Notes: a model not told the origin generated them from the sequence alone. A stretch of 39,913 nt of DNA from an uncultured Heliobacteriaceae bacterium (GCA_964457105.1 CAYWDW010000001.1:1-39913), one strand, 5' to 3'; numbered from the stretch's first letter, positions 2,651 through 26,148 are shown. A program made the numbers and translations.

Positions 2651-5600
2651 TCAGTTCTGATTTTTAGCCGTGCTTCTGGTGTGATAGTTCGGGAAGGCCG
2701 GCAGTTTGTACTGCGGCTTCGGATTTTTCTTCAGCTCTTCCATCAGCACTTCGACGGCCTTTTCAAGCTGCGGGTCGCGGCCCTGGCGCCAGGCCGCCGG
2801 ATCGAATTCAACTTCAATGTCGGCAGGCACGCCGACGTTTTCGACTTCCCATTCACCGCCGAGGCCGTAAATCGCGGCGTCGGGCGCGGTGACGAAACCG
2901 CCGTCCATCAGTTGCGGCGCAGGGAATGAAGCGATCAGACCGCCCCACGTGCGTTTGCCAATGGTCGGGCCGATCTTCATTTTGCGGAAGTACCAGGGCA
3001 TCGCGTCGCCGCCCGAACCGGCCAGTTCGTTGATGAGCATGACCTTCGGCCCGTAAATCGCGCCCGCCGGCACCGGCACGTCCTGCCCGCCTTCGCGGTA
3101 ATGAATGAAGCTGAGAAGCTGACGGCTCAGATGCTGCACAACGTAATCAGCGAGCAGTCCGCCGCCGTTGAAGCGTTCATCCATCACGGCGCCTTCGCGG
3201 TTGGTCTGCGCGAAGAAATAACGATTGAAGCTCGTATAGCCGCCGTTCGCCGTGTCGGGCATGTACACGTAAGCGAGCCGCCCGCCGCTCAGTTCATCAA
3301 CCTTGCGCCGATTGCCTTCAATCCACGCCAGATTGCGCAGCCCGTTTTCACTGGTCACCGGCACGACCGTGACTTCGCGCGAACCTGCGCCGTCAGCGTT
3401 CGGGCCGACCCTGATGATGACCTGCTTGCCGGCTTTCGATTCAAACGCCTGATAGACGTTGTCGTTCGCCGTCAGGTCGCGCCCGTTCACAGCGAGCAGG
3501 TATTCACCGGCTTTGACGTTGACGCCGGGTTGCGTGAGCGGCGCGCGCAGGTTCGGGTTCCAGTGCTCGCCGTTGTAAACACGGGCGAAACGGTACCGCC
3601 CGTTTTCAATCTTGTAATCGCAGCCGAGCAGCCCGCCGGGCACAAAGTTCGGGCGCGGCACATCGCCGCCGCGAATGAACATATGCCCGACCGTCAGTTG
3701 ATTGAGCATTTCGGTGAACAGATAGTTCAGATCGGCGCGATGCGCGACGGCGTTCAGGTACGGCTCGTACATCTTTTCAGCCGCCTTGAGGTCGAGGCCG
3801 TGCGCGTTCGGGTCGTAAAAGAAATCGCGTTCGCCGCGCCAGACTTCTTTGTACATCTGCTTCCATTCGGCTTTCGGGTCAACCTGCACTTCCATTTCGC
3901 TGACCTTCAGCAGATGCGGCGCGCCGGGCGCGCCGGGCGGCGTCGGCTGTCCGAGCGTGGCCGTGCTGGCAATCGTCCAGTTCGGCCCCTGGCGATAAAG
4001 CGCCTTTTCGCCACTGGCTGAAAGCTGAAAGGCGCTGACGCCTTCAATCGCCTTGTCGAACTTGCGCTTTTCAAGATCGAACTTGTGAACGATGAACGAA
4101 GGCGGCGCGGAGGCTTCCGGATTGACCGGCGGCGCTTCGACGAGGTAGATGCTGCTGGCCTTGCCGGCCAGCAGGTCAACGAAGTTGCGCGCCGGAATCG
4201 GCAGCGCCACGATGCGCTGGTCAATCCCGTCAAGGTCCACGCGCACAGGTTCAGGCTCTTTCTTTGCCGGAGGCTTCGCGCCTGCCTGGGCGTTGTCGGC
4301 CTTCTTTTCACCGTCCTTCGCGGCGTCGCCCGGTCCTGCCGCGTCTTTCTTTTCAGGCTGCAATTTTTCTTCATCGCTTTCAGGCGCCAGCGGCGAAGGC
4401 TGATCGTTGCGCAGCACTACGGCATAGACGCTGCGCGTGGACTGATGCGCGATGCCTGACAGATCGGCAAAGCTGATCGAAGGACCGAGATTGGTGCTCG
4501 CCGTGAAGTACAGATACCTGCCGCTCCGGTCAAAGGCCGGATAGCGCGCATCGCTCAGGCCATCGGTGAGCTGACTGGCTGTGCCTGCATCGAGCGAATA
4601 GATAAAGACCGCGCGCAGCAGGTTCGGCAGGTGCTTCGTGTAAGTGATCCATTTGCTGTCGGGCGACCACATCGGCAGCAGCACGTCGTCATTGTTGCCA
4701 ATCGGGTTGCGATCAACTTTGACCGGCGCGCCCTTGTCAACTTCGAGATACCAGAGGTTCAGCCGCTTGTCGAAGTACGCGATCTTTTTGCTGTCGGGCG
4801 ACCAGGTCGGCGCGTAATAAAACGATGGTGGATTGCTGAGGCTGAATTTTCTGACTTCGCCTTCGCCTTTCTGATCGCGGAGGTGCAGCGCGTATTCACC
4901 CGATTCATCGCTGAAATAAGCAACCCACTTGCCGTCAGGAGACCACGCCGGGTCGCGTTCCATGACGCCCGGCGTGCGGGTCAGATTGCGCGCATCGCCT
5001 TTTTCGGCAGGCACGGTGATGATTTCGCCGCGCGCTTCAAAGACCGCGCGCGCGCCCGTTGGCGAAAGCTTCGCATTCGTGATGCGGCTGCCAACACGCT
5101 CGAAGCGCGGACGCACCGAAGCGAGATCGGCGCTGACGCGAATATTCACTTTCTGCGCCTTCTTCGCTTTCAGATCGTAAAGATGAATCGTGCCGAACTG
5201 TTCGTAGGCGATCACGCCCGGCCCGGCTGAGGCTGATTTGATGTCGAGGCCGTCGTTATTGATAAGCTGCTCAACTTTTTTCGATTTCGTGTCGAAGGCA
5301 AAAAGCGACACTGCGCCGCTCGGCGAGTTGCGATCAGAAAGGAAATAGATCTTGTCGCCCACCCACATCGGGTTTTTGTCGGTGGCGTTTTCGCGCGGAA
5401 GCTTTTCGATGGATGAATCGGCGAGCTTTGCAATCCAGATCACGTCGCGCTGCCCGCCGTGATAGCGCTTCCAGTCGGGCTGCCACTGAATCAGCGGCTC
5501 ATAAGCGATGAAGGCACCATCCGGCGAATAAGACCCGCGTTCGGCCATCGGCAGCGGCATTTCTTCAGGCAGTCCGCCGCCTTCGGTGCCAATGGTGAAC

Positions 5601-6007
5601 AGGCGCGGCGCAGGCGTGCTGCTCTGGCGAACCGAAGAAAACAGCACGCGCCTGCCATCATTCGTCCAGCCGACGGTGAGGTCAGCGCCCGGATGATAAG
5701 TCAGCCGCTTCGGCACGCCGCCCGCCGCAGGCACAACGTAAACATCGGTGTTGCCGTCGTACTGTCCGGTAAAAGCGACCATCGTGCCGTCAGGCGAAAA
5801 GAACGGGTCGGTTTCGGTGCCGACGCCTGTGGTCAGTTGTTTCGCCTCGCCGCCCTCGCGCGGGACGATCCACAGATCACCGGCATAAACAAAGACGATT
5901 TGCGTGCGGCTGACGGTCGGCTGCTGAAACAGTGTCGGGGCGTCCTGGGCCAGGCACGCACCTGCGGCGCAAATGGCACAGAGAAGGGCCAGCGTGATTC
6001 TGATCAT
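2651..6007 (-). CDS. Tricorn protease homolog (signal peptide, TolB/WD40-like beta-propellers, PDZ-like segment, S41 peptidase domain), paralog B
   Basis: 1118-aa ORF with AGGAG upstream of the ATG and a signal peptide (MIRITLALLCAICAAGACLAQ). FSPDG/WSPDG propeller motifs recur, and the C-terminal part resembles tail-specific (S41) proteases. This architecture is recognised from the tricorn protease family. Confidence 0.88.
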   Translation of the reverse strand: MIRITLALLCAICAAGACLAQDAPTLFQQPTVSRTQIVFVYAGDLWIVPREGGEAKQLTTGVGTETDPFFSPDGTMVAFTGQYDGNTDVYVVPAAGGVPKRLTYHPGADLTVGWTNDGRRVLFSSVRQSSTPAPRLFTIGTEGGGLPEEMPLPMAERGSYSPDGAFIAYEPLIQWQPDWKRYHGGQRDVIWIAKLADSSIEKLPRENATDKNPMWVGDKIYFLSDRNSPSGAVSLFAFDTKSKKVEQLINNDGLDIKSASAGPGVIAYEQFGTIHLYDLKAKKAQKVNIRVSADLASVRPRFERVGSRITNAKLSPTGARAVFEARGEIITVPAEKGDARNLTRTPGVMERDPAWSPDGKWVAYFSDESGEYALHLRDQKGEGEVRKFSLSNPPSFYYAPTWSPDSKKIAYFDKRLNLWYLEVDKGAPVKVDRNPIGNNDDVLLPMWSPDSKWITYTKHLPNLLRAVFIYSLDAGTASQLTDGLSDARYPAFDRSGRYLYFTASTNLGPSISFADLSGIAHQSTRSVYAVVLRNDQPSPLAPESDEEKLQPEKKDAAGPGDAAKDGEKKADNAQAGAKPPAKKEPEPVRVDLDGIDQRIVALPIPARNFVDLLAGKASSIYLVEAPPVNPEASAPPSFIVHKFDLEKRKFDKAIEGVSAFQLSASGEKALYRQGPNWTIASTATLGQPTPPGAPGAPHLLKVSEMEVQVDPKAEWKQMYKEVWRGERDFFYDPNAHGLDLKAAEKMYEPYLNAVAHRADLNYLFTEMLNQLTVGHMFIRGGDVPRPNFVPGGLLGCDYKIENGRYRFARVYNGEHWNPNLRAPLTQPGVNVKAGEYLLAVNGRDLTANDNVYQAFESKAGKQVIIRVGPNADGAGSREVTVVPVTSENGLRNLAWIEGNRRKVDELSGGRLAYVYMPDTANGGYTSFNRYFFAQTNREGAVMDERFNGGGLLADYVVQHLSRQLLSFIHYREGGQDVPVPAGAIYGPKVMLINELAGSGGDAMPWYFRKMKIGPTIGKRTWGGLIASFPAPQLMDGGFVTAPDAAIYGLGGEWEVENVGVPADIEVEFDPAAWRQGRDPQLEKAVEVLMEELKKNPKPQYKLPAFPNYHTRSTAKNQN

Positions 6008-7069: not shown

Positions 7070-7463
7070 GCAGAATTTCTCCTGTTGATTCGGTCAGTTT
7101 GAATTGCAGATGATCTCTGGTGGAGAACGAACGAATGAGGCCGACCAGAGTCGCTGCCGGGTTCTGCGGCAACGGCTGTCGGCTTCGGCCCGCGGTGTCC
7201 GTGGACGCCGGGATTGTAGCAGAAAGGCTGCGGTTATTGGATGCGGCACGTACCGGCGGACAAAGAAAAACGCCCGCGCGCGCAGGGTCTTTCGGATTGC
7301 CCGCCAGGACCGAAAACCAGCAAAAAAAGATAGCCTGAGGTCAAATGGCTGTGCTAGATTGTGCGCGGTTTCAACCTGGCCCTGCCCTGAATTTTCAGCA
7401 TTTTAATCAGTCCTCCTGAACAGCCTCACAACTGGCGGCCCATGGTCCCGGTTCCTGGTTCAC

Positions 7464-10400
7464 ATGGCTCAGATCAAAAGCTACGTTGACCTCGAAAGTT
7501 ATGACGAGATAACCACCTTCGCGGGCGCTGACGCCGAGCGGGTGGTGCGGTCTTACGTCGTGACTGAAGAGACCGGGAAGCTGGCGGCGCAGATGCTGCG
7601 TGATCTGATTGCGCCGCGCGGTGCGGCGCCGGCCCTGCAGTTGATTTCAGGTCCGCGCGGCAGCGGCAAGAGTCACCTGCTGGCCTTTTTACGCGCGCTG
7701 ACCGGCACGCGGGCCGTGCGCTCCATTCCCGGTCACCCGCAGTTGCAACAGACGCTCAGCCACCTCGGCGGCAGGACGCTGATTCCGGTCGAACTCAATT
7801 TCATGGCCGGTGAGCCGACGGCATTTGAAGCCGTACTGCGTGCGGGCCTCAACAGCATTCTGGTCGAAGGCGCGGCCTTTGACGATACGCGGTGGCAGCA
7901 GGCCGTCGCCTGCGAACAGGTCTTTGAGCAGACGCTCAGTGTCATGTCGCTGGATGTGCAACTGGTGCTCTTCATTGACAACCTGTCGAGCCGCTGGCGG
8001 GCGACGCCGGAAGTGATTGAGAGCGATCTGAAATGGCTGAAGCTGATTGCACGACAAGCCGAATCGCTGCCGCTCAGGGCCGTCCTGGCCCTGGATGAAA
8101 AGGATTACGCCGCGCAACTGGAAGCTGGCGGACCGGGCGCCCTGCAGCCGCCGGTCAGCGTGCGCGCGCTGCCGCCGCACCTGCTGCGCACGGTCATCAC
8201 CCAGGGCGTGCTGCGCAAAAAGCCGGAAGCGAAAGCCCGCCTGACCGCTTTGTATCAGCAGATCACAGACAGTCTGCCGGGGTTTGCCTGGAGCGAGGGC
8301 GAGTTCATCGCTTATTACCCGGTGCATCCGACGCTGGAAACGCTCGCTCCGGCGATGTGCCGTCATACGCGCCATTTTTCACTGCCCGGCTTTGTCTCGA
8401 CTGCCGTCGCGCGCGCCCTCAACCGCCCGGAACTGTCGCTGGTCACGGTTGACGAACTCTTTGACCGCTACGAATACGAACTGCGCAAAAGCGAAGCGAC
8501 CGCCGCGCCCTTTGCGCTTTATGACCGCCTGGTCACTGAGGCGCTCGGCAATTTGTCAGTTGAGGATCGGCTGTGGGCGAGGATGCTTGGCAAGGCGCTG
8601 ACGCTGTTTCTGCTGACCGAAGAACCGGTGACGGTCGAGCGGCTGGCCGATGCGACGCTGATGTTCGACGGCGGCACGGCGACTGAAAGCGGATACGAAA
8701 GGGCGGCGCGCATTCTGGCGCATTTTGAACCGCTCGCGCCCGAAACAATTCGTCTGGCGGGCGCGGCAGGCGCGCGATCCTGGCAATGGCATCTGGTGCC
8801 GCCGCCGGTGCCGCTCAGTGAACAGCTCGCGACGGCAGCGCGTGACATCAGCCGCGCTGATCCGCGCCTGGCCAGGCTGCTGCTGAGCGTTGGCGGCAGC
8901 GTCTTTGCGGACTGGAATCCGGGCGACCTGGCGCGGCCCGCTGAGGCCGACATCTTCAGACCGCTGCTGCCGGAATCGGCTTTCAGTGAGATCACCTGGC
9001 GCGGCACACCGCGGCGCGGGCAGATTGGCCTCGCGACAAACGGGCAGCCGCCGTCGGGCGATGAACAGAACTGGCGGCTGCTGATCGTGCCATTCAATGC
9101 GGCGGCAAAGTCTGCCGCGACGATCAGTCAGCCGGGCGAAGTGCGCTGGCAGGCGGGCGAACTTGCGGATGACAAGGCGCTCGAACCGCTCGCCTGGCTG
9201 CTCGCGCTGCACGAACGCCCGGAACCGACTGAGGATGAGCAGGAGGAAGTGAATCGCCTGAAGGCTCAACTCGTCGCGCAGGTCAGAGAACTGTTCACCG
9301 ATTTATACCTGCGGCGCGGCGTGTTTGCCGATCAGCACGGCACGCGCCCGGTTTCGCCGGACCTTGATCCGGCCTCTGGTTTTGCCGCGCTGCTTAATCG
9401 TGAAATCACCGCCACGCTCGACAGTCTCTATCCCGATCATCCGCATTTTAACGGCCAGCTCACGAGCGACGATGTGCTGCTGCTGCTGACGGGGCTGTTT
9501 GCCAGCAGTTCACCGAATACCGAGCAGGTGCGCGAACTCGCGGCCAGGTTTGCGGTGCCGCTCGGCCTGGTCAGCGAAACGCGGGGCCGGTTCCGGCTCA
9601 ACGTGTTCAATGAAGCCGCCAACCTCCCGCCCTTTATTCACGCGCTGGTCACGCTGGTTGAAATTCATGCCGATGCCGAAGGCTGTTCGGATGTGCCGCT
9701 GCACAAGGTGCTGCGCCTGCTTGAAGTCTCGCCTTACGGGCTGCCGCTCGCGGCGCAGCATCTGATTCTGGTGGCGTTCATTTCGAGCGGCGTTTACGAA
9801 CTGATTGACGAAGCGACCGGCAAACGGCTGACGAAGGCGAATCTGCATCTGGGTTTTGAACCGGCGCGTTTCTCGACGCTGCGGCGCGTGGCCACGACCG
9901 ATTACCCGCTCGACATTCTGCAAACGTGGTCGAAACGCCTGACCGGACGCGACGATCTGCCAGCGCTGATTTCGCCCGAAGCGCATCACACCGTCCGCGA
10001 TGCGCTCTCGGACTGGCTGGAGCAGTGGCGCACACAGGACCTGCGGGAAAGATTTGAGGAACTGCCCGCGGATCTGATCACGATGACGACGTGGGTCAGC
10101 GTGAATATGAGCATCCGGCGTTATGAACGCGCCGCCGCGATGATCGAAAACATTCTGGAAGACGTGCTGACGATTGAAACCGGGCTGTCGCGCATCCTCG
10201 ATCTGTTCGGCCTGGATGTCATGGCGCTGGAGCAGGCGTGGCTGAAGATGCAGTCGCTGGCCGGGTTTCTGGACTGGCTGCCGCGCTTTGTGCAGCTCAG
10301 AAATTATCTGCTCGCGGCAGAGATGACCGGCGAAGCAGCGATTGATGAGCAGGGTGACGAGTTGCAGTCAGGTTTGCGCGAACTGCACGAACTGCTGCTG

Positions 10401-11084
10401 GCCGAATCGCGGCAGCAACTGGAACTGCGCTTTGAAGGGTTCCGCGAACAATACGGCAGTTATTACACCGCCGCGCACGAATCCAGCGTCGGTCATCGGG
10501 CTTACGTGGAAATGATCGAAAGCTTTTATGCCAGCGCCGAATGGCAGAGCTTCAAGCTGCTGACGCAGCTCAAGCTTGACGGGCGCGCCTTTGAAAGCGA
10601 TGCGCGCCTGCTGACCGAACTGGTGGAAAAGACGCGCTGCGACCTGCCGATCAGCGACATCCTGCAACGTCAGCCGCATTGTGGCTGCTCCTTCCGGCTC
10701 AATCGCCGCCTCAATCTCGGCAGCATTCTGGATGCCTTCCGCAGCCTCGCCCGCTCGGCGGCGGCCTGTTACAGCCAGGAGGTCTGGAAGCGCCGCGAGG
10801 AGTTGCGGCTGTGCGTGCGCGAACACGCCAGCGAACCGCTGGCGAGCGCCCTCAGTTGCTTTCTGAGTTCCTGCGGCGAAGGCCGGATCGAAGGCCTCTC
10901 GCAGGAAGTCGTCAGCTTTCTTAACGAACACCTGCCCGACCCGCCGCTCGTCGCCGTCCTGCCCGACATTCCGCGCTTCGATGACGGCAGCTTCACCCGC
11001 GAACAGTTGCGCGAAAACCTCAACCGCTGGATTGATTCGCTGCCCGAAGAAGAAGGCCTGCGCTTTCGCGTCGAACGCGCCTGA
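7464..11084 (+). CDS. Large soluble P-loop NTPase, BrxC/PglY-like (DUF499/DUF6079-type), orphan
   Basis: 1206-aa ORF. Walker A GPRGSGKSH lies at nt 7650-7673. The Walker-B-like strand LVLFIDN has Asn in place of the usual acidic second residue (nt 7977-7982). An AYYPVHP motif sits at nt ~8313-8330. The N-terminal leader ending in YVVTEE before the P-loop resembles BrxC-type ATPases. A C-terminal Cys cluster (C-x13-C-x-C) lies at nt ~10630-10700. No TM segments and no clear SD. The CDS is confident; the family assignment comes from motif memory only. Confidence 0.65.
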   Translation: MAQIKSYVDLESYDEITTFAGADAERVVRSYVVTEETGKLAAQMLRDLIAPRGAAPALQLISGPRGSGKSHLLAFLRALTGTRAVRSIPGHPQLQQTLSHLGGRTLIPVELNFMAGEPTAFEAVLRAGLNSILVEGAAFDDTRWQQAVACEQVFEQTLSVMSLDVQLVLFIDNLSSRWRATPEVIESDLKWLKLIARQAESLPLRAVLALDEKDYAAQLEAGGPGALQPPVSVRALPPHLLRTVITQGVLRKKPEAKARLTALYQQITDSLPGFAWSEGEFIAYYPVHPTLETLAPAMCRHTRHFSLPGFVSTAVARALNRPELSLVTVDELFDRYEYELRKSEATAAPFALYDRLVTEALGNLSVEDRLWARMLGKALTLFLLTEEPVTVERLADATLMFDGGTATESGYERAARILAHFEPLAPETIRLAGAAGARSWQWHLVPPPVPLSEQLATAARDISRADPRLARLLLSVGGSVFADWNPGDLARPAEADIFRPLLPESAFSEITWRGTPRRGQIGLATNGQPPSGDEQNWRLLIVPFNAAAKSAATISQPGEVRWQAGELADDKALEPLAWLLALHERPEPTEDEQEEVNRLKAQLVAQVRELFTDLYLRRGVFADQHGTRPVSPDLDPASGFAALLNREITATLDSLYPDHPHFNGQLTSDDVLLLLTGLFASSSPNTEQVRELAARFAVPLGLVSETRGRFRLNVFNEAANLPPFIHALVTLVEIHADAEGCSDVPLHKVLRLLEVSPYGLPLAAQHLILVAFISSGVYELIDEATGKRLTKANLHLGFEPARFSTLRRVATTDYPLDILQTWSKRLTGRDDLPALISPEAHHTVRDALSDWLEQWRTQDLRERFEELPADLITMTTWVSVNMSIRRYERAAAMIENILEDVLTIETGLSRILDLFGLDVMALEQAWLKMQSLAGFLDWLPRFVQLRNYLLAAEMTGEAAIDEQGDELQSGLRELHELLLAESRQQLELRFEGFREQYGSYYTAAHESSVGHRAYVEMIESFYASAEWQSFKLLTQLKLDGRAFESDARLLTELVEKTRCDLPISDILQRQPHCGCSFRLNRRLNLGSILDAFRSLARSAAACYSQEVWKRREELRLCVREHASEPLASALSCFLSSCGEGRIEGLSQEVVSFLNEHLPDPPLVAVLPDIPRFDDGSFTREQLRENLNRWIDSLPEEEGLRFRVERA

Positions 11085-11093
11085 CCTCAGAAA

Positions 11094-11213
11094 TGCAGAT
11101 TGCAGATTGCAGATTGCGGAATAAAGACCGGGTTTCTGATCCCGCAATCCGCAATCTGCAATCTGCAATCTGCAATCTGCAATCTGCAATCTGCAATCTG
11201 CAATCTGCAATTC
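11094..11213. repeat. Heptanucleotide tandem-repeat hairpin: (GCAGATT)x3 opposite (GCAATCT)x8-10
   Basis: Read directly from the sequence. 11095-11120 pairs perfectly (26 bp) with 11148-11173 across a 27-nt loop. The right arm continues as further unpaired GCAATCT units to 11213. The element starts 10 nt after the ATPase stop codon (11082-11084). Confidence 0.9.
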
Positions 11214-11350
11214 TGACTGCCTGTCTCCTGGGCTTCACCTTGTCTGCCTGATCTTCCCAGGGTATTGTCTGCGACTCAGTATCCTGCGGGTTGGCGGGCG
11301 TCTCGCGGCTTTCCTGATTTTCAAGCAACTGACTGAACGGAATTGAAGTT

Positions 11351-14245
11351 TTGGCCCTGAATCTGCAATCAGTCGCCGGCAGCCGCGCGGTTGTGAGCGC
11401 GGCGCTGCTGTTAATGCCGGTGATCTATTTTTATCCGGTCATCACCAGCCACGTCACGCTGCTGCCCGGCGACGGATGGACGCAGATTTTCGGCATCAGA
11501 ATGCTGACCGGAAAGCTGATCGCCCAGGGCCTGCTGCCGCTGTGGAATCCGTATGTGTTTGGCGGCATGCCGCTGCTGGCCAGCATTCAGCCGGGCGCGC
11601 TCTATCCGCCAAGCTGGCTCTTTGCGCTGCTGACGCCGCGCGCCGCAATGAACGTCATGGTGATAACGACTTATCACCTGGCGCTGACGGGCGCTTACCT
11701 CTATGCGCGGCGCATCGGCATTGACCGCACTGGCGCCGTCATCAGCGGGCTGGCCTTTGCCTTCAGCGGCTATCTGATTTCACACCTCGGACACACCAAC
11801 CGCATTGCCGCCGCCGCGTGGCTGCCCTGGCTGCTGCTGGCGGTCGAAAACCTCTCGCTGACGGCCAGGTGGCGCTGGGTCACGCTCGGCGCACTATTCA
11901 TTGCGCTGCAAATGCTGGCCGGTGAACCGCAGATGACCTGTTACGCGGGGCTGGTGACGGCGGCTTACTGGGCTTTCACTTTGCTGTTCAGAAAACCGCC
12001 GGCGGGCAGATGGCGATTCATCATCACAACGGCGGTCATGGCGATGTGCGGCGCACTGCTGTCGGCCATTCAACTGCTGCCGACGCGGGAACTGCTCGCA
12101 CAGGGGCCGCGCGCGCGACTCACTTACGAATACTTTTCGCTTTACGCGCTGCCGCCGCATCAACTGACTGAATTCATCCTGCCGTATTTTTACGGCGGCG
12201 CGGTGGCGGGGCCGTACCACATTCCGTTCTGGGGCCAGGAGGCGATTACTGAAACGTGCGGTTATGTCGGTCTGCTCGCGCTGCTGCTCGCGCTGACGGC
12301 GATTATCGGGCGCAGGCGGCAGCCGCTGGTGTGGTTCTGGGCCGCCGTCGTGGTGATTTCGCTGCTGCTGGCGTGTGGCGCTTACCTGCCGTTTGACATC
12401 AACCGGGCGCTGTATCGGATTCCGGTTTACAACCTCTTTCGCGCTTCCGGGCGGCATCTGCTGGAGTGCGATTTTGCGCTGGCGGTGCTGGCCGGACTCG
12501 GCGCGCAATTCATCAGCGAAAGAAAGCCCGCTGAAACCGCCCGCGCCGCGCTCGCGGGCACGCTGCTGCTGGCGGCACTGGTGACGCTGACGCTGGTGCT
12601 TTATCTCTTTTTCGGCGAGCGCCTGGTCAGCGGCATTCCGCGTCCGCCGCAGGCCGGTTCAATCGCCGCCCCTGAAGCCTTTGTCCCGCTTTTACTCTTT
12701 ATCGTCAGCACAGCGGTCTGCTGGCTTCATCTCAGACAACGCCGGGCGTGGTCGGGGGCGGCCATGGTGGCGGTGCTGTTCATTGATCTTTGTTCGTTCG
12801 GGCATTTCTTTGACTGGCGGGTTTACGATTTTGATGTGGCGGCGCGGCTGGCCGATCCTCCGGCGGTCAGCTTTATCAAACAGCGCGAGCCTGATTTCAA
12901 TGGCTTTCGCGTGGCGAGTTCGACCGTGCGCCCCTGGCCGTTTGGCGCAGCTTACGATCAGATCAATGCGCCGAACGTTTCGATTGCGCGCGGGTTGCAA
13001 AGCATCAATGGTTATGACCCGGTGCGCCTGCTGCGCCTGAGCGCCATCACCGGTGAAATGAGCATCGAAGGCGAGCCGCAGAATCTGAATGTGTATGGCG
13101 CGGAGCATCAGGGCTTCAATCTGCTCAATGTGAAATACCTGCTGCACGAACGGGCGCAGGCTGACGCGGCCAGGCCGAGCGTAAATTACGACGGCATCAT
13201 CTTTGACGAAAAGCCGCTGCATCTGAAACTGCCGCCGGGCAGTCAGCTTGAATTCACTCCGAACGGCATAACAGCGGCGGAACTGGCCATCGTGTCCACG
13301 CTGGCCAATTCGATTCACCTGCCGGACGGCGCGCCGGTCGCCAGGATCACGCTGCAAACACGCGACGGGCGCACCATCGAACGCGAACTTCAGGCCGGGC
13401 GCGACACCGCCGAATGGTCGTGGGATGAACCGCGCACCAGCCAGGCGGCGCGGCATCACCGCGCCAGGGTCGTGAGCAACTGGCCGGTCAATGAAACTTA
13501 TCAGGGCCATCATTATCTCGCCCGCCTCGCCTTTGAGCGCAGCGACATCACCCGCATCACCCTGACCTCAGCGCAATCGGCCAGCGGTCCGGCGGCGGAT
13601 GTGCTGCTGATGCGGCTTTCGCTGTTTGATCCGGTCACGGGCCGGTCAGCGCCGCTTGATCCGGTCGCGCTGCCGACGACCAGGTGGCGCAAACTTCAAA
13701 GCTTCGGCGCGGTTGATCTGTACGAAAACCTGAAGGCGCAGCCCCGCGCCTGGTTCGTGCGCGAAGTCGCCGCGCGTCCCGCCGCCGAAGTGTTGCAGGC
13801 GGTCACGTCAGGCCGCATGAAAGACGGGCAGCCATTCGACCCGGCGCAGACGGCCCTGCTTGAGACTGAAGATTTCGGCGCGCGCGCGATCACGCTGCCC
13901 GCGACCGGCCCGGTCAGCGAGGCCCAGGTCAGCGTTACAAAATATGAACCGCAGCGCATTGAACTGGTGACGCGCAACGCGCAGCCGGGCTTTCTGGTGC
14001 TGAGCGAAATTTATTATCGCGGCTGGGAAGCGTGGATTGACGGGCAGCGCGTGCCGGTTGAGCGCGCCAATTACGTCCTGCGCGGGCTGGCCGTGCCTGC
14101 CGGTGAACATCGCGTGGAATTCATCTTTCGCGCGCACAGCTTTCGCAACGGCGCAATGTATTCACTGCTCGGCGCGCTGCTGCTGACGGGCGGCGCGCTG
14201 CTGCAACGACGTTACTCACGCAGGAGAGCAGAAAAGCGGCTCTGA
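11351..14245 (+). CDS. YfhO family GT-C membrane glycosyltransferase, paralog 1
   Basis: 964-aa polytopic membrane ORF. The N-terminal motif is PGDGWTQ..LWNPY.FGG.PLLA. The C-terminal periplasmic domain ends with the YfhO-typical YYRGWEAWIDGQRVPVERANYVLRG..VPAGEHRVEF plus a final TM helix. The only in-frame start ahead of the first TM helix is TTG at 11351 (upstream in-frame stop at 11330-11332). Confidence 0.85.
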   Translation: MALNLQSVAGSRAVVSAALLLMPVIYFYPVITSHVTLLPGDGWTQIFGIRMLTGKLIAQGLLPLWNPYVFGGMPLLASIQPGALYPPSWLFALLTPRAAMNVMVITTYHLALTGAYLYARRIGIDRTGAVISGLAFAFSGYLISHLGHTNRIAAAAWLPWLLLAVENLSLTARWRWVTLGALFIALQMLAGEPQMTCYAGLVTAAYWAFTLLFRKPPAGRWRFIITTAVMAMCGALLSAIQLLPTRELLAQGPRARLTYEYFSLYALPPHQLTEFILPYFYGGAVAGPYHIPFWGQEAITETCGYVGLLALLLALTAIIGRRRQPLVWFWAAVVVISLLLACGAYLPFDINRALYRIPVYNLFRASGRHLLECDFALAVLAGLGAQFISERKPAETARAALAGTLLLAALVTLTLVLYLFFGERLVSGIPRPPQAGSIAAPEAFVPLLLFIVSTAVCWLHLRQRRAWSGAAMVAVLFIDLCSFGHFFDWRVYDFDVAARLADPPAVSFIKQREPDFNGFRVASSTVRPWPFGAAYDQINAPNVSIARGLQSINGYDPVRLLRLSAITGEMSIEGEPQNLNVYGAEHQGFNLLNVKYLLHERAQADAARPSVNYDGIIFDEKPLHLKLPPGSQLEFTPNGITAAELAIVSTLANSIHLPDGAPVARITLQTRDGRTIERELQAGRDTAEWSWDEPRTSQAARHHRARVVSNWPVNETYQGHHYLARLAFERSDITRITLTSAQSASGPAADVLLMRLSLFDPVTGRSAPLDPVALPTTRWRKLQSFGAVDLYENLKAQPRAWFVREVAARPAAEVLQAVTSGRMKDGQPFDPAQTALLETEDFGARAITLPATGPVSEAQVSVTKYEPQRIELVTRNAQPGFLVLSEIYYRGWEAWIDGQRVPVERANYVLRGLAVPAGEHRVEFIFRAHSFRNGAMYSLLGALLLTGGALLQRRYSRRRAEKRL

Positions 14246-14306: not shown

Positions 14307-17300
14307 TTGAAGGCTTCAACCTCAAAGCTGAAATCAACCAGCACGCATCGCGCCCTGATCGGGGCGGCGCTGCTCGTGCTGCCGCTGGTCTGGTTTTATC
14401 CGGCGTTCACGGGCAGTTCATCGCTCGCGCCGGGTGATGGCTGGTTTCAGAATTTCGGCGTGCGCGTGCTGACTGGCAGGCTGCTTGACAGCGGTTTTCT
14501 GCCGCTCTGGAATCCGTATATTTTCGGTGGCCTGCCGTTGCTGGCGAGCACCTATCCGGGCGCGCTTTATCCGCCCAACTGGCTGTTTGCGCTGTTCTCG
14601 CCGGGCGTGGCGATGAAGGTCGTGGTCATCACGACTTATCACCTGGCGCTGCTTGGCACGTATCTTTATCTGCGCCGGGTCGGGCTGTCACGACTGGCGG
14701 CGCTGGCGGGCGGGCTGAGCTTCACCTTCAGCGGTTTTATGATCGCGCATCTCGGTCACACGTCGCGCATCGCGGCGGCGGCGTGGCTGCCCTGGATGAT
14801 GCTGGCGATGGAGCAGCTTTATCAGCGCATTTCGTGGCGGTGGGTCGTCATCGGGTCCTTCTTTTTCGCGCTGCAGTTTCTGGCCGGTGAACCGCAGATG
14901 CTGGTTTACACGGCGCTGGTGGCCGGGGCTTATGTGCTGTTTGCCATGCTCTTTCGTCCGGCGACTGCGCCGCGCTGGCAGTTGCTTGCGGCGGCGGCCA
15001 CGATGATTGTTTGCGGCACGCTGCTGGCGGCGATCAACTGGATTCCGTCCCGCGAACTGGTGCAGCAAAGCGGGCGCGCAAAGCTGACGTATGAATACTT
15101 CAGCGCGTTTTCAATGCCGCCGCGTCAGGTGGTGTCGCTGATCTTTCCCTATTTTTTCGGCGGCGCGGTTTCGCGGCCATACATCCTTGCGCCCTGGGGG
15201 CCGTCGGACTGGGGCGCCGACAACGTGGCGGTTTCGTGCGGCTATGTGGGAATGTTCGCGCTGCTGCTGGCGCTCGTGGCCATCTGCGGGTCGCAGCGGT
15301 GGCGGCTGGTCTGGTTCTGGGGCTTTATCGCCGCGCTGTCGCTGACGCTGGCCTTTGGCGCCTACCTGCCCTTCGGACTCAATGGCCTGTTGTATCGCCT
15401 GCCGGTTTACAACCTCTTTCGCGGCTCTTACCGTCACCTGCTGGAGTTTGATTTTGCGGTTTCAGCGCTGGCCGGCTTCGGGCTGCATTACCTGGCGCAG
15501 ATGGATCAGGCCAGCGTGCGCCGCGCCCTCACCCGCGCGGCGGCAAGCCTGGGTCTGCTGGTGACTGTGACCGCGATTGTTTACTGTTTTTTCTGGCCGC
15601 ACCTGCTGACGAATAAACCGCGTCAGCCGCAGTTCGGTTCGCTCACCAATGCCGAAGCGCTCATTCCGATCAGCTTTTTTCTGCTCAGCGTGATGACCGC
15701 ATGGTTTTATGCGCGGCGTCGCAGCCGCCTGGCCGGCGCGCTGCTGATCGGATTGCTGCTGGCTGATCTGGCGGCTTTCGGGCACGCCTTTGAGTGGCGC
15801 AATGCGGCGTTTGACGCGAACGCGCAACTCAGCGATCCGCCCGCCGTCAGGGCCATCAAGGCCCGCGAAACCGATCTGAACTCGTTTCGCATTCTCAGTC
15901 ACGGCGCAATGCCGTTTGTCGAAAATTACGACGCGCTCGATTTTCCGAATGTCTCGATTGCGCGCGGCCTGCAAAGCGTCAACGGCTATGACGTGCTGCA
16001 ACTGCGCCGCTTCGCCGCCGTCGCCGGTGAGATGACCGCTGAAGGCGCGGTGCAGGACAGCAGCGCCTTCGACCCGCAGCATCAGGGTTTCAATCTGCTC
16101 AATGTGAAATACCTGCTCAATGAACGGCGCGTGCCGGTTGATGAATTTCACGGCGATAAAATTGACGGCGTCGTGTTCAGCCGCGCTCCGCTGAGCCTCA
16201 GGCTCAGGCCGGGCACGCACGTTGAAATGGCGCTGAACGGCGTGACGGCCACTGAACTCGCCGTCATTTCATCGCTGAGCAATGCAGCCGCGCTGACAAA
16301 CGGCACGCCGGTGGCCAGCGTCAGGCTGCACACGAGCGACGGGCGCGTGATTGAACGCGAATTGCAGGCCGGGCGCGACACTGCCGAATGGGCCTGGGAT
16401 CGCGCCGATGTGACGTCCGTCATCAGACATCAGCGCGCTGCCGCAGCGCAAAGCTGGGACGCGGGCGGCTTCGCGGGCCATCGGTATCTGGCACGGCTGC
16501 GGTTTGACCGGGCTGAAATCGTCAGCGTGGAATTTGATTTTCGTGAAACCGGATCGGTTGAACTCAGCCTCGAACGCGCTTCGCTGTTTGACGCGCAGTC
16601 GCAGACCTCAACGCCGCTCGACAGTCGCACGCTGCCCGCTTCACGCTGGCGCAAACTGGCGCAGTTCGACACCGTTGATTTATACGAAAACATCAGGGCG
16701 CTGCCCCGCGCCTGGTTTGTGCGCGAGGTGCAGGCCCGGCCTGCCGCTGAAGTGTTGCAGGCCATCAAAACCGGCAGGCTGACCGATCAGCAGCCCTTCG
16801 ATCCGGCACAGACGGCCCTGCTTGAGACTGAAGATTTCGGCGCGCGCGCGATCACGCTGCCCGCGACCGGCCCGGTCAGCGAGGCCCAGGTCAGCGTTAC
16901 AAAATATGAACCGCAGCGCATTGAACTGGTGACGCGCAACGCGCAGCCGGGCTTTCTGGTGCTGAGCGAAATTTATTATCGCGGCTGGGAAGCGTGGATT
17001 GACGGGCAGCGCGTGCCGGTTGAGCGCGTCAATCACGTCCTGCGCGGCGTGAGTGTCGCGCCGGGCAGCCATCGCATCGAATTTGTGTTTCGCTCGCCGG
17101 GCTTTCGCAACGGCATCAGGTATTCACTGCTCAGCCTGCTCGTGCTGCTGACCGGAGCCGTCATCAGTCAGACCGGGTGGCCGCGACGCCCAGGCCTGCA
17201 GTCAGCGGCAAAATTTCGTTTCAGGGTGCGCGGTTCAAAATGGTGGCTCGGCGGCGTGGTCGTGGCGCTGACGCTGTATGGCGCAACGCTCATTCGGCAG

Positions 17301-20428: not shown

Positions 20429-21214
20429 TTACTGCGCCGCCGGCTTGCCAAACTTCGCGTCCTCAATCGGCGTGTTGTGTTTCACTTCTGTCAGCTTGAT
20501 TGAGAGCGTGAAGGCCGGTGTGACCTGGCGGATTGAATACGGAACCCTGACGCCGTCCACCGTCTGGTAATCGTCGGTGTAAATTTCGACGGGCATCTTT
20601 CCCTGCGGGCTTTCGCGTTCAGCATCGTGCCGGATCAGCAGGCCTGAAGCGACGTCAAAATAGAGTTTCTCCGGGCTGCCTTCAGCCGGTGTGGCTTCGA
20701 TGACCCAGGCGTCCGATGAGCCGACTTTCTCTTTGCCCTTCAGCTCCATTTTCGAGAAATGTTTCCTGAGATTGATGGCCCCATAGAAATCAGAATCGCG
20801 CTTCAGCGTGGTCAGCTCCGCGCCGCTCAGTTCGCGCAATCCGCTCATCGGGTCTGACGACCAGCCACTGCTGCCGTCAAAGACATTGTTGACGGTGCCG
20901 AAACCTGACAGCGTAATGACCACCGCATTTTTATTCGGCGCTTTCGAGAAGGTTTCGACCGTGCCGCTCATGCCCATGCCTTCGAGTTCGATGGTGCCTT
21001 TGCTCGTGCGCGAGGTCAGCTTTTCAATGGCCTCTTTGCCGCCCACGGCCTGAACCTGCTTTGCCAGAATTTCATCAACGGTCGGGGTCGCGGCGGCCTT
21101 CGTGTCGGCTTTCGGTTCGGGTTTTGCGCCGTTGCCGGCCTTTGGATTTTCCTGCGCGGCAGCGACCGCCAGGAGCAGCAGCGAAATCGTCAGAGTGAGT
21201 GCAATGCGTTTCAT
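20429..21214 (-). CDS. Secreted protein, LolA-like / outer-membrane lipoprotein-sorting-like fold (function uncertain)
   Basis: The ORF-track version (to 21337) overlaps pcm. The likely start is the ATG at 21214 (MKRIALTLTISLLLLAVAAAQ, signal peptide) with AAGGA 8-9 nt upstream; 21223 is an alternative. The fold assignment rests on general sequence resemblance only. Confidence 0.6.
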   Translation of the reverse strand: MKRIALTLTISLLLLAVAAAQENPKAGNGAKPEPKADTKAAATPTVDEILAKQVQAVGGKEAIEKLTSRTSKGTIELEGMGMSGTVETFSKAPNKNAVVITLSGFGTVNNVFDGSSGWSSDPMSGLRELSGAELTTLKRDSDFYGAINLRKHFSKMELKGKEKVGSSDAWVIEATPAEGSPEKLYFDVASGLLIRHDAERESPQGKMPVEIYTDDYQTVDGVRVPYSIRQVTPAFTLSIKLTEVKHNTPIEDAKFGKPAAQ

Positions 21215-21278
21215 TACGTCCATCCTTTTCTGTTTGATGTTGCGGTGATTGGGGGACTGGTTGATGTGGCCGGGTGCT

Positions 21279-21962
21279 TTATCGCTCGCTGTGCCAGCCG
21301 TGCTGCCCGACCAGTCTGACAAACTGGCAGCGGCCAAAATCTTCGGTCTTCGGGCCGGTGTCGGTGCGCGTCACACGCATCAGCCGTTGTTCCGTTTCAG
21401 TGCCGACGGGAATGACCAGCCTGCCGCCAATGGCCAGTTGTTCGACGAGCGGCGGCGGGATTTCGGGCGACCCGGCAGCCACCAGAATCCCGGCATAAGG
21501 CGCATAATCACGCCAGCCGCTGGTGCCATCGAAGCACTTGAGAATTACGTTGGTGAAGCGCAGTTCGTTCAGCAGTTTTTGGGCACTGCGCGCCAGCTCA
21601 ACTTTGCGTTCGATGGCGAAGACCGCGCGCGCCAGGTGCGCCAGGATCGCCGTCTGATAGCCTGAGCCAGCGCCGATTTCCAGCACGCGGTCGCCGGGTT
21701 GCAGTCCGAGCAGTTCAGACTGTCGCGCCACGATGTAAGGCTGCGAAATGGTCTGCCCCGCCGCAATCGGCAGCGCGTGATCGCCGTAAGCATTGCCGCG
21801 CAACGCTTCGGGCACGAATAAATGACGCGGCACGGCGTTCATCGCCGCCAGCACGCGCTCATCACGAATCTCGTAATGCTGGCGCAAATGTTCGACCATC
21901 CGCGCCCGAATGCGGGCCTGATCGTAACCGCGATTGCGACCTGAAGCATCAGCCTGAACCAT
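21279..21962 (-). CDS. pcm: Protein-L-isoaspartate O-methyltransferase
   Basis: 227-aa ORF with the motifs PRHLFVP, GQTISQPYIVA and the SAM-binding VLEIGAGSGYQTA. It lies directly downstream of surE, as in the conserved surE-pcm pair. Confidence 0.9.
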   Translation of the reverse strand: MVQADASGRNRGYDQARIRARMVEHLRQHYEIRDERVLAAMNAVPRHLFVPEALRGNAYGDHALPIAAGQTISQPYIVARQSELLGLQPGDRVLEIGAGSGYQTAILAHLARAVFAIERKVELARSAQKLLNELRFTNVILKCFDGTSGWRDYAPYAGILVAAGSPEIPPPLVEQLAIGGRLVIPVGTETEQRLMRVTRTDTGPKTEDFGRCQFVRLVGQHGWHSER

Positions 21963-25983: not shown

Positions 25984-26148
25984 AGCAACGCAGGCTTTCG
26001 CCGAACCACCGGCGGCCATGTTGTTTTCTGATTTCATTCGCTATACTGCGCCTCTCCCTGTGTGACTGGTATCCCTGAAGCCCCTGCAAGGCACAGCATC
26101 CCTCAGCCTGAAAATCAAACTACCTTTTCCTCAGTGAGGTTGTGCAGT

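Follow-up and report, generated by a model that had tools for sequence, protein, structure and literature searches.

Results

The gene and its flanking signals

The window, that is, the whole stretch of 39,913 nucleotides that was analyzed, carries a long open reading frame with a putative control signal on either side:

7328..7362, plus strand: promoter-like motif about 100 nt before the ATG, a conserved block in seven upstream regions
7464..11084, plus strand: gene for a solitary BrxC/DUF6079-like protein (ORF of 1206 aa, ATG start)
11087..11217, plus strand: long hairpin of inverted heptamer repeats directly after the stop codon, detected by folding

The ATG start codon is supported because 20 of 20 full-length homologs begin, in the alignment, at the same M-x-Q-[IV]-K. 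No Shine-Dalgarno sequence was found upstream of the ATG at 7464, and the gap to the preceding gene (7070-7463) measures 394 nt. The original prediction, made from the sequence alone, had described this translation signal as unusually poor. The missing Shine-Dalgarno sequence and the long gap are both real, but about 10 of the 20 candidate genes in the window likewise have none, and its absence is thus ordinary for this genome. The GC content of the gene resembles that of its surroundings. Within the promoter-like motif, a -35-like TAGCCT (7331-7336) is separated by an 18-nt spacer from TG-n-TAGATT (TAGATT at 7355-7360). An alignment of upstream regions revealed conservation of this block in seven loci whose proteins are 40-98% identical, while a strict consensus scan missed it. 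The hairpin has a folding energy of -68.3 kcal/mol (z -8.7) and an array of 9.7 copies of the heptamer GCAATCT at 11144-11211; beyond it lies the next gene downstream, a YfhO gene at 11351. The conserved promoter-like motif and the strong hairpin past the stop codon suggest that the gene forms its own transcription unit.

The predicted protein has a pI of 5.2 and is soluble, with a highest 19-residue Kyte-Doolittle mean of 1.58 and no transmembrane-like segment detected on this scale. Every motif that had been predicted was located: YVVTEE (residues 31-36), GPRGSGKSH (63-71), LVLFIDN (167-173), AYYPVHP (283-289) and the C-x13-C-x-C cluster (C1059/C1073/C1075). Residues G63, R65, G66, G68, K69, S70, H71, D172, Y285, P286, H288, P289, C1059, C1073 and C1075 are invariant in the window protein's own family, and residue 173 is variable there (N/Q/H/G/E).

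A full-length member of the BrxC/PglY family

The product of the ORF is a genuine full-length BrxC/PglY (DUF6079) homolog, as had been proposed. BrxC is the ATPase that forms the scaffold of BREX, a defense system against phages. Pfam PF19557 (DUF6079, named BrxC-PglY_N in newer releases) matched residues 3-290 only, with 41 bits against a cut-off of 23 (E 6e-11), compared with 238-250 bits for canonical DUF6079 members. PADLOC BrxC-PglY models matched the protein down to 9e-9, and the NCBIfam equivalog NF033441 (BREX_BrxC) gave 20.1 bits, below its cut-off of 400. Alignment of the window family with canonical DUF6079 proteins by hhalign extended the homology to the full length, with a probability of 100 and an E value of 1.4e-53 over 1132 columns (1-1221 versus 2-1198). 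The canonical profile comprised seven DUF6079 proteins, those of L035 and L036, for which an adjacent PglZ gene was confirmed, and those of L039, L042, L044, L050 and L051. Motifs common to both groups are M-x-K-I-K, GxGKSHLLAF, P-x-HP, HP-x-F, PYG and Y-x-x-x-HE-x-x-VG, and the hhalign comparison also placed the Cys cluster and the C-terminal end in common. Consistent with this homology, the best four Foldseek matches in the PDB were to Acinetobacter BrxC (9zll/9zdx; E 2e-6 to 3e-5, probability 1.00), followed by ORC/Cdc6 proteins; the TM-scores are low (0.28) because the whole multi-domain model was superposed.

Two other families were considered and rejected. The relation to DUF499 ATPases that had also been suggested was abandoned, as the protein has no Pfam DUF499 match even at an E value of ≤1 and no methyltransferase or helicase-nuclease neighbors. 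Similarity to SspC/DndF of phosphorothioate systems is confined to the P-loop region (residues 23-86; E 2.7e-5 to 0.09), and Pfam and PADLOC searches found no Ssp or Dnd genes in the window.

Domain order

The AlphaFold2 (AF2) models divide the protein into the following regions:

7530..8558, plus strand: ORC/Cdc6-type AAA+ core and helical lid, residues 23-365 (AF2 model, Foldseek)
8559..8813, plus strand: first winged-helix-like domain, residues ~366-450 (AF2 secondary-structure order)
8814..9368, plus strand: two-helix connector and alpha+beta domain, residues ~451-635 (AF2: strands 506-563, long helices 570-617, hairpin 620-629)
9369..9908, plus strand: two more winged-helix-like domains, residues ~636-815 (AF2), with a conserved PYG common to canonical proteins
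9909..11081, plus strand: all-helical C-terminal module, residues 816-1206 (separate AF2 model)
10638..10688, plus strand: Cys cluster C1059-x13-C1073-x-C1075 in the distal subdomain, a candidate metal site by conservation

Judged by the secondary structure of the model only (pLDDT 73.7), the domains run from an ORC/Cdc6-type AAA+ core through a winged helix, an alpha+beta domain and a pair of winged helices to a long helical C-terminus, which has a Cys cluster and a small distal subdomain. This order agrees with that of published BrxC. The BrxC order, including the two-helix connector and the alpha+beta domain, has been described in bioRxiv 10.1101/2025.10.09.681413. The connector and alpha+beta region is the most variable part of the window protein, with indels and the highest dN/dS (0.40), and the alpha+beta domain of canonical BrxC has been reported to be fast evolving (bioRxiv 10.1101/2025.10.09.681413). 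The middle domains, like those of canonical proteins, are acidic (pI ~5), and charge thus gives no support for DNA binding.

The model of the C-terminal module (pLDDT 89.3, pTM 0.74) had no match in the PDB. In sequence, a segment of the module pairs with the C-terminal end of canonical DUF6079 proteins, and the terminal R-[FI]-[RK]-[VL] is common to both; dimerization of BrxC is mediated by its last 80 residues. The Cys cluster is invariant in 26 diverse solitary sequences and has a canonical counterpart, C-x13-C-x2-C, at the aligned place. H1005 (10476-10478), within the common H-E-x-x-V-G motif, is also invariant.

Residues for ATP hydrolysis are not conserved

Within the AAA+ core, the modeled strands are b1 (58-63), b2 (105-112), b3 (165-172), b4 (204-211) and b5 (231-235), with the lid helices next. 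The nucleotide site comprises the following positions:

7650..7676, plus strand: Walker A/P-loop GPRGSGKSH, residues 63-71 (invariant residues in the family alignment)
7962..7982, plus strand: Walker B strand LVLFID (b3 in the model) and N173, which stands where the catalytic Glu would be, residues 167-173
8094..8099, plus strand: acidic pair D211-E212 at the sensor-1 position, end of strand b4 (model, motif tables)
8100..8153, plus strand: variable linker at the place of the canonical arginine-finger pair, residues 213-230 (family alignment, motif table)
8310..8330, plus strand: AYYPVHP signature, residues 283-289, common to canonical BrxC-type proteins
8373..8378, plus strand: H304-F305 at the position of the BrxC sensor-2 arginine, R430 (alignment to Acinetobacter BrxC)

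The solitary clade to which the window protein belongs keeps the P-loop and the Walker B aspartate, whereas the glutamate, the arginine-finger pair and the sensor-2 arginine of BrxC are not conserved. The P-loop Lys is kept in 81 of 82 solitary-clade sequences, and P286, H288 and P289 are invariant across these 82 and nine canonical sequences. As predicted, Asn replaces the catalytic acid: N173 aligns exactly with E269 of the Acinetobacter BrxC motif LFLVD-E269. Of 82 clade sequences, 81 have T, N, G, S, H, D or Q at this position, against E in all nine canonical ones; in a larger set, the Walker B glutamate was absent from 127 of 133 clade sequences, and D-E occurs in the Walker B of P0009, a member of the family. 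Where canonical proteins have R-x3-R (K326/R330 in Acinetobacter BrxC), the alignment shows a length-variable linker with no conserved basic residue. The invariant canonical sensor-2 Arg, equivalent to Acinetobacter R430, aligns with H304/F305, and F305 is invariant in the window's own family. R303, one or two residues before this position, could partly substitute for the sensor-2 arginine in the window protein; just 14 of 82 clade members have Arg there. The acid at D211-E212 is ancestral rather than compensatory, because canonical DUF6079 proteins are also acidic there (Q-E). Walker A and Walker B lie about 90 residues closer together than they do in Acinetobacter BrxC.

In Acinetobacter BrxC, E269, K326/R330 and R430 contact ATP, and in the BREX system of this organism the BrxC substitutions E269Q and R330E each abolish both restriction and methylation. 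E269Q stabilizes ATP-dependent dimers of the BrxC N-terminal domain, which raises the possibility that a protein naturally devoid of the Glu resembles an ATP-locked state. The association of heads through ATP that is seen in BrxC may not form where arginine fingers are missing. The nonconservation of the arginine fingers and the sensor-2 arginine strengthens the earlier suggestion, made from the Asn, of an ATP-binding switch.

A large, vertically inherited clade

The window gene belongs to one large clade found mainly in the class Blastocatellia (Acidobacteriota). This branch, previously undescribed, resides in the core chromosome of Blastocatellia soil bacteria. It has at least 227 representatives (50% identity, E≤1e-30), mostly from Blastocatellia/Pyrinomonadaceae, and 582 clusters matched a Pyrinomonas-type member, P0036, at E≤1e-10. 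Among the matches listed (120 of these 582 clusters), essentially all were full length, and the informative source names were Pyrinomonadaceae or Acidobacteria. The Glu-less sequences form one clade in a neighbor-joining tree without support values. The gene is not a rare orphan but a member of a very large clade.

Members of the clade have diverged together with their neighbors, lie among housekeeping genes and are under purifying selection. Protein identity among loci declines in step with that of the neighboring genes, dS equals the dS of the neighbors, and dN/dS is 0.18-0.21 for the gene and indicates purifying selection in all domains. Such a large, vertically inherited clade argues against a mobile defense island. 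These data bear on a possible role as a sensor that guards against phages or plasmids as a single gene. In this reading the protein would keep the DNA-recognition modules of BrxC and work unaided; it might, for instance, sequester or clamp foreign DNA, with neither methylation nor a nuclease. Such a role would fit descent from a defense family, the position of the fastest-evolving segment (dN/dS 0.40, indels) in the alpha+beta domain, as reported for canonical BrxC, and the conflict-system-like layout of sister giant proteins that adjoin a Ser/Thr kinase. However, throughout the class the gene keeps a fixed chromosomal position and has been passed down together with its housekeeping neighbors, no defense island or mobile-element genes lie nearby, selection is purifying throughout, and Pfam, NCBIfam and PADLOC profile searches detected no effector domain in the protein. 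We therefore consider a sensor unlikely.

Neighborhood

Consistent with the original prediction, Pfam and PADLOC searches of the remaining large ORFs in the 40-kb window found no PglZ, PglX, BrxA, BrxB, BrxL, nuclease or helicase. About 30 related loci, most of them viewed over flanks of ~10 kb, likewise had no BREX partner genes, and the clade members there are solitary. It is improbable that the protein serves as BrxC in a BREX-like system that has been split, with PglZ, PglX and BrxB encoded elsewhere in the genome. BrxC does normally work with BrxB-PglZ and PglX, and the view of most loci spans only ~10 kb per side, but no partner was seen within 40 kb here or at the other loci. Moreover, mutation of E269 or R330, residues absent from the clade, destroys methylation and restriction in Acinetobacter, and the genes of BREX usually lie in one compact locus, in contrast to the fixed place of this gene in core synteny throughout the class.

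In 16 of the 20 subfamily loci that could be read, with proteins 36 to 98% identical, the gene is succeeded on its own strand by GT2 and/or YfhO genes. This association is what favors a partnership, for example as a regulator, with the downstream GT2/YfhO (CsbB/YfhO-like) envelope glycosylation genes, which we nevertheless regard as very doubtful. A gap of 190-400 nt always lies between the gene and GT2/YfhO in the subfamily, occupied here by the -68 kcal/mol hairpin, and the gene has its own conserved promoter-like motif. The link is missing at four subfamily loci (L005, L008, L013 and L026), and members of the wider clade neighbor ClpP-trigger factor, M48/UbiB, PspA/ProRS or RecO/TruB instead. 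The protein is also cytoplasmic, with domains of DNA type. Because the order is conserved only inside the window's subfamily and is split off by the gap and the strong hairpin, the glycosyltransferase neighbors probably reflect inherited gene order and not partnership, and the significance originally attached to this context does not hold.

Finally, a decaying remnant of a former BREX locus without present function, as the loss of catalytic residues might imply, is contradicted by the selection data (dN/dS ~0.2 in all domains), by the persistence of an intact, full-length ORF across hundreds of lineages, and by the many invariant noncatalytic positions and the conserved promoter-like motif, and can be set aside as extremely improbable.

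Discussion

The window protein is probably an ATP-binding, poorly hydrolyzing, dimeric, DNA-associated scaffold that acts outside BREX. From homology and models, we infer nucleotide binding, dimerization, metal binding and DNA binding. The residues of the active site suggest that the protein would bind ATP-Mg and hydrolyze it very slowly or not at all; if ATP is bound but hardly hydrolyzed, nucleotide binding would therefore act as a conformational or assembly switch. By analogy with BrxC, dimerization would occur through the conserved C-terminal end, and the Cys cluster may form a metal-stabilized knuckle. Its winged-helix and alpha+beta domains would engage DNA, with the protein serving as a scaffold or clamp. 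The protein would function without BREX enzymes, in a lineage-wide chromosomal role and not in a mobile defense island, and the downstream glycosyltransferase genes would be neighbors by descent.

The loss of hydrolysis residues, together with a solitary life in the core chromosome, suggests that a defense protein may serve another use. We tentatively extend the scaffold reading to the possibility that a single event at the root of a large acidobacterial lineage turned a BrxC-type defense scaffold into an ATP-gated, nonhydrolyzing chromosomal DNA-binding protein. This would be a bacterial ORC/Cdc6-like factor with a housekeeping role in chromosome organization, replication or DNA surveillance that needs no BREX enzymes.

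Comparison with known systems

The closest relatives, BrxC/PglY of BREX/Pgl systems (9zdx, 9zll, 9zn5), have the same length class (~1200 aa) and domain order. Traits in common are the N-terminal leader, the GxGKSHLLAF P-loop, the Walker B aspartate, the acidic sensor-1 position, P-x-HP, HP-x-F, PYG, H-E-x-x-V-G, the Cys cluster and the C-terminal end. Unlike these proteins, the window protein is without the Walker B glutamate and without a conserved arginine-finger pair or sensor-2 arginine, and, unlike BREX/Pgl genes, its gene has no PglZ, PglX, BrxA, BrxB or BrxL neighbors and is vertically inherited in fixed core synteny. DUF6079 also occurs outside classical BREX, in DUF6079 and PglZ pairs and in a HerA/FtsK-centered BREX-related system (Rakesh & Krishnan, bioRxiv 10.1101/2025.10.09.681413). 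The canonical DUF6079 proteins aligned here keep D-E, R-x3-R, the sensor-2 Arg and, where checked, the PglZ neighbor, whereas the window protein is without these residues and its gene has no PglZ beside it. [quoted passage not shown]

Giant BrxC-like proteins of 1700-2050 aa (L027, L029, L030 and L034) belong to the same Glu-less clade, with the Walker B sequence FIDG and 25-27% identity over residues 4-806. They are followed by proteins of ~210 aa and ~650 aa, the latter a Ser/Thr kinase in L027, the one locus scanned, and the window protein has no such partners. Among ORC/Cdc6-clade subunits, some bind ATP without hydrolyzing it, and the AAA+ fold is kept as a binding or assembly module. The likeness of the window protein to these subunits and to BrxB-type inactive STAND proteins is one of analogy only, without a specific sequence relationship. 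In the BrxB type, the fold was kept for assembly after catalytic loss, as proposed here for the window protein; however, BrxB lost its Walker motifs entirely, whereas the window protein retains Walker A and the Walker B aspartate.

Identity and architecture of the window protein

The open reading frame at 7464..11084 on the forward strand begins with ATG and encodes an acidic protein (pI 5.2) of 1206 amino acids with no membrane-like segment. This start codon is supported by an M-x-Q-[IV]-K opening that 20/20 full-length homologs share at the same place. All of the motifs listed in the original prediction were recovered in the protein:

Motifs of the window protein
Residues 31-36: YVVTEE
Residues 63-71: GPRGSGKSH, the P-loop
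Residues 167-173: LVLFIDN, Walker B strand b3 and N173
Residues 283-289: AYYPVHP
Window 10638-10688: C1059-x13-C1073-x-C1075, the Cys cluster

Within the protein's family, the P-loop residues, D172, Y285/P286/H288/P289 and the three cysteines are invariant, and residue 173 is N, Q, H, G or E. The weak translation signal ascribed to the gene was borne out in that a Shine-Dalgarno sequence is lacking and the upstream gap spans 394 nt, but it is not unusual: about half of the window's 20 candidate genes also lack a Shine-Dalgarno sequence, which rules out its absence as a special feature.

The BrxC/PglY-like identity first proposed for the protein was upheld in profile and structural comparisons. 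Pfam DUF6079 (PF19557; BrxC-PglY_N in newer releases) scored 41 bits against a cut-off of 23, over residues 3-290 only, and PADLOC BrxC-PglY models matched the N-terminus (up to 9e-9). The NCBIfam BrxC equivalog gave 20 bits, far below its cut-off of 400. The comparison set consisted of seven canonical DUF6079 proteins from other phyla (loci L035, L036, L039, L042, L044, L050 and L051); the two that were scanned, those of L035 and L036, scored 238-250 bits on the Pfam model, and a PglZ gene directly follows each. Alignment of the solitary and canonical family profiles with hhalign extended from the first residues to the last (probability 100, E 1.4e-53, 1132 aligned columns). Common to the two families are an N-terminal M-x-K-I-K leader, GxGKSHLLAF, P-x-HP, HP-x-F, PYG, Y-x-x-x-H-E-x-x-V-G, the Cys cluster and a C-terminal R-[FI]-[RK]-[VL] end. 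Net charge did not separate solitary from canonical proteins.

The AlphaFold2 model of the window protein was of medium confidence (pLDDT 73.7); the structure and representative searches used a 1200-aa truncation or a smaller alignment. With domain boundaries set by secondary structure only, the model contains AAA+ strands b1 (58-63), b2 (105-112), b3 (165-172), b4 (204-211) and b5 (231-235). A helical lid comes next, then a winged-helix-like unit, a two-helix connector and an alpha+beta domain whose fourth strand is succeeded by two long helices. Beyond these lie a further pair of winged-helix-like units and a long C-terminal module made up of helices. Rakesh and Krishnan give the same domain order for BrxC (bioRxiv 10.1101/2025.10.09.681413). 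Foldseek against the PDB placed the N-terminal structures of Acinetobacter BrxC, 9zll and 9zdx, at the top (E 2e-6), with ORC/Cdc6 proteins next. Collectively, the profile-profile homology, the domain order and the Foldseek matches demonstrate that the assignment is correct over the whole length, and thus that the window protein is a full-length member of the BrxC/PglY (DUF6079) superfamily.

A degenerate nucleotide site

In Acinetobacter BrxC, ATP is contacted by K78, E269 and R430 (sensor 2) of one subunit and by the arginine fingers K326/R330 of the partner subunit (PMC13326643, NAR 2026). These residues were mapped with the canonical profile as query against Acinetobacter BrxC sequences in the PDB, a search that reaches N-terminal BrxC constructs only. 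LVLFID forms strand b3, the Walker B strand, in the AlphaFold2 model, and N173 aligns with E269, in agreement with the original prediction that Asn takes the place of the catalytic acid.

Elements of the nucleotide site
Walker B: Acinetobacter BrxC, LFLVD-E269; canonical DUF6079, hhhhD-E; window protein, LVLFID-N173
Arginine fingers: Acinetobacter BrxC, K326/R330; canonical DUF6079, invariant R-x3-R just before b5; window protein, variable linker with no conserved basic residue
Sensor 2: Acinetobacter BrxC, R430; canonical DUF6079, invariant Arg ~16 residues past P-x-HP; window protein, H304/F305

Residue counts were taken from an alignment of nine canonical proteins with 82 members of the clade of Glu-less solitary BrxC-like proteins. 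Directly following the Walker B Asp, 9/9 canonical proteins have Glu; in the clade this residue is T (57 members), N (9), G (6), S (4), H (2), D (2), Q (1) or E (1). In a set of homologs that include an N-terminus, the glutamate is absent in 127/133, and the six with D-E are the family member P0009 and five canonical-type proteins. The arginine-finger region of the clade is a linker that varies in both length and sequence. At the sensor-2 position, F305 is invariant within the window protein's own family, and R303, one or two residues before it, is Arg in only 14/82 clade sequences. The Walker A Lys is kept in 81/82 clade members and the Walker B Asp in 82/82. In one clade member, P0027 (L063 10001-13744), the Walker A Lys is replaced by Arg (GPRGVGRSH); judging from this substitution, even nucleotide binding may be altered in that lineage.

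E212 of 'AVLALDE' (ALDE 209-212), a motif resembling the hhhhDE form of a canonical Walker B, was considered as a relocated catalytic Glu and rejected: it lies on b4, at the sensor-1 position, in the AlphaFold2 model, and since Q-E occupies this position in canonical DUF6079 proteins, the acid is ancestral and not compensating. Restriction and methylation are both lost in Acinetobacter BREX when BrxC carries either E269Q or R330E; E269Q also reduces ATPase activity and makes ATP-dependent dimers formed by the N-terminal domain more stable (PMC13326643). Taken together with the degenerate site, these mutant data make a binding switch, and not a hydrolase, the best reading of the window protein. 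This putative ATP-binding switch, originally proposed from the Asn, can now be argued from three missing elements instead of one: the Glu, the arginine fingers and the sensor-2 Arg.

The C-terminal module and its cysteine cluster

When residues 816-1206 were modelled alone with a deeper alignment, a confident all-helical fold was obtained (pLDDT 89.3, pTM 0.74). No structural relative of this module was found in the PDB (best E 0.64), as expected since the C-terminal part of BrxC is unresolved in the cryo-EM work (PMC13326643). The three cysteines and H1005 (window 10476-10478, in H-E-x-x-V-G) are invariant in 26 diverse clade members and have counterparts in the seven canonical proteins, where the spacing is C-x13-C-x2-C; in the window protein they lie where one helix breaks off and another starts. 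This placement fits the 'small distal subdomain' of BrxC, which has been likened, by analogy, to a Zn hook (Rakesh and Krishnan). The cysteines are mentioned neither there nor in the NAR paper (PMC13326643). The conservation of the His and the cysteines in sequence makes it reasonable to propose that the distal subdomain of BrxC-type proteins holds a metal site.

Extent of the clade

A word-indexed search returned 21 full-length relatives (37-98% identity) from Blastocatellia MAGs, some already named 'DUF6079 family protein' by NCBI; with the wide family alignment A6, such a search returned only the close family. An exhaustive profile search of sequences clustered at 50% identity yielded 770 representatives at E<=1e-3, of which 227 passed E<=1e-30. 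Among the 150 matches listed, most were ~1100-1300 aa and matched over nearly the whole profile, the rest being fragments. A query with the homolog P0036, whose cluster holds the Pyrinomonas sp. protein WP_352432010.1, found 582 clusters at E<=1e-10; among the 120 matches listed, essentially all were full length, and the informative source names were Pyrinomonadaceae or Acidobacteria, the taxonomy of relatives being that of MAG source names, as cluster records carried little taxonomic detail. A neighbour-joining tree of 451 N-terminal columns, built without support values, grouped all Glu-less sequences together in one clade, with all D-E sequences, PglZ-adjacent or PglZ-fused, making up the other.

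Giant Glu-less BrxC-like proteins of 1715-2053 aa with Walker B FIDG were also observed, at L027 9986-18557 and at equivalent places in L029, L030 and L034, in Blastocatellia, Acidobacteria and 'Clostridia' MAGs. Each is followed by a ~210-aa protein with no Pfam match and then a ~650-aa protein, which is a Ser/Thr kinase in L027, the only locus scanned. The three genes appear to form a system that is as yet undescribed and that is related to the window protein.

Genomic setting

The following features flank the gene or lie elsewhere in the window:

8-2506 and 2651-6007: tandem tricorn-protease paralogs, one of the two cut by the window edge
Divergent from the window gene: 3-keto-disaccharide hydrolase
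7328-7362: promoter-like motif, ~100 nt before the start codon, conserved in seven loci
11087-11217: 130-nt hairpin directly past the stop codon (-68 kcal/mol, z -8.7)
11351-14245 and 14307-18719: two tandem YfhO-type membrane glycosyltransferases downstream, 56% identical paralogs
Elsewhere: PhzF, PCMT, SurE, an Amt-GlnD pair, an aminotransferase and a pyridine-nucleotide oxidoreductase (GltD-like by our own reading)

The tricorn-protease tandem has three paralogs in the homologous locus L001 (1-8545). The second YfhO paralog is fused to a PMT_2 domain, and the pair is followed by a conserved 169-aa protein that matched no family; relatives carry a GT2 (CsbB-like) gene ahead of YfhO. Four ORFs had no Pfam or PADLOC match: 26062-29076 (1004 aa), 29078-29980 (300 aa), 31151-31933 (260 aa) and 20429-21337 (302 aa). 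PADLOC found nothing among the window's other proteins. As originally noted, no BREX partners occur among the window genes, and none was found near the loci of wider clade members.

The promoter-like motif, derived from conservation alone, consists of a conserved A-rich stretch, (A)TTGCCT, 17-18 nt and then TGTGCTAGATTG. It aligned in the window and L001, L003, L005, L007, L008 and L009, and persists even between loci whose proteins share just 40-50% identity. It resembles an extended -10 promoter, which would imply a leader of ~100 nt. A strict sigma-70 scan found no promoter, and terminator-like sites occurred only at chance level. A riboswitch or known RNA in the 394-nt leader was rejected: Rfam was empty there, and sub-threshold 'mir' matches fell in the downstream hairpin only. 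That hairpin has no U-tract and sets three GCAGATT units opposite a tandem array of ~ten GCAATCT/AATCTGC heptamers. Repeats of a similar kind, GGATTGC/GCAATCC, are present upstream of the L008 homolog, and the repeats may be a dispersed family of these genomes.

A functional link between the window protein and the downstream glycosyltransferases would be in keeping with the window protein's closer relatives, in which GT2 and/or YfhO comes next on the same strand in 16/20 loci with a readable downstream flank (exceptions: L005, L008, L013 and L026). However, the gap to the next gene is always ~190-400 nt and here holds the hairpin, the window gene has its own conserved promoter-like motif, and wider clade members sit beside other genes: ClpP and trigger factor, M48 peptidase and UbiB/RibF, or PspA and ProRS, while others lie near RecO and TruB. 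YfhO was found near none of these wider clade loci, nor was any BREX gene. The evidence thus counts against a functional link, and we read the adjacency as gene order inherited within one lineage. On the upstream side, one sub-branch of the subfamily has the hydrolase as neighbour and the second has proline dehydrogenase. The L026 homolog (10001-13509) matches as two pieces, 10001-10825 and 10837-13509, possibly through a frameshift or an assembly error in that MAG.

Selection and inheritance

The dN/dS of the gene was 0.18 against L057 (a 98% identical strain) and 0.21 against L001 (an 88% identical relative), with neighbouring genes at about 0 to 0.31. All domains are constrained, least of all the connector and alpha+beta region (dN/dS 0.40), the same region reported as least constrained in canonical BrxC (bioRxiv 10.1101/2025.10.09.681413). 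Divergence of the window protein runs in step with that of its neighbours: percent identity of the window protein and of DUF1080 was 87/92 in L001, 71/91 in L003, 63/75 in L015 and 52/66 in L013, and that of the window protein and PhzF 40/65 in L007. Horizontal acquisition was rejected in view of this parallel divergence, of a dS against L001 of 0.30, within the neighbours' range of 0.28-0.62, and of GC content (62.9% in the gene, 60.7% in the window). Collectively, these data point to a functional, vertically inherited gene that is neither a mobile island nor a relic.

Proposed mechanism

The window protein combines a complete BrxC architecture, with P-loop and Walker B Asp intact, with the loss of any conserved catalytic Glu, arginine fingers or sensor-2 Arg, and its gene is solitary, under purifying selection and vertically inherited. 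From its sequence, the protein would bind ATP-Mg and hydrolyse it slowly or not at all. It would dimerise through its conserved C-terminal end, since the last 80 residues of BrxC mediate dimerisation (PMC13326643), and would contact DNA through its winged-helix and alpha+beta domains, acting as a nucleotide-gated scaffold or clamp independent of BREX enzymes. Its fixed core-genome position favours a housekeeping, chromosome-associated role over stand-alone immunity.

Significance and comparison with known systems

Defence-finder pipelines and the 'DUF6079 family protein' label will misname these genes as BREX fragments. A simple discriminator is Walker B D-E versus D-[TNGS], used in combination with the R-x3-R pair. 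Of the core components of BREX, BrxC is the least understood, its mechanism still under study, and Acidobacteriota are a major but poorly studied soil phylum. The clade is a natural experiment: in hundreds of lineages, purifying selection maintains the full BrxC architecture with the hydrolysis residues missing and no BREX partner nearby. It separates what BrxC can do alone (nucleotide-dependent assembly, DNA binding, C-terminal dimerisation and a possible metal site) from what depends on PglZ, PglX and BrxB, and is a candidate example, in Acidobacteriota, of a defence protein co-opted to serve a cellular role throughout a lineage.

The literature searched held no account of solitary BrxC homologs or of BrxC in Acidobacteria. 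The DUF6079 family label was already known from databases; undescribed are the clade itself, the degeneracy of its site and a solitary distribution that spans the class. Consistent with the original prediction that it matches no described system, the window protein is part of none of the BREX, Pgl, DUF499-BR and HerA/FtsK-linked systems as described, and, unlike canonical BrxC, it lacks the catalytic residues and is not a catalytically canonical BrxC.
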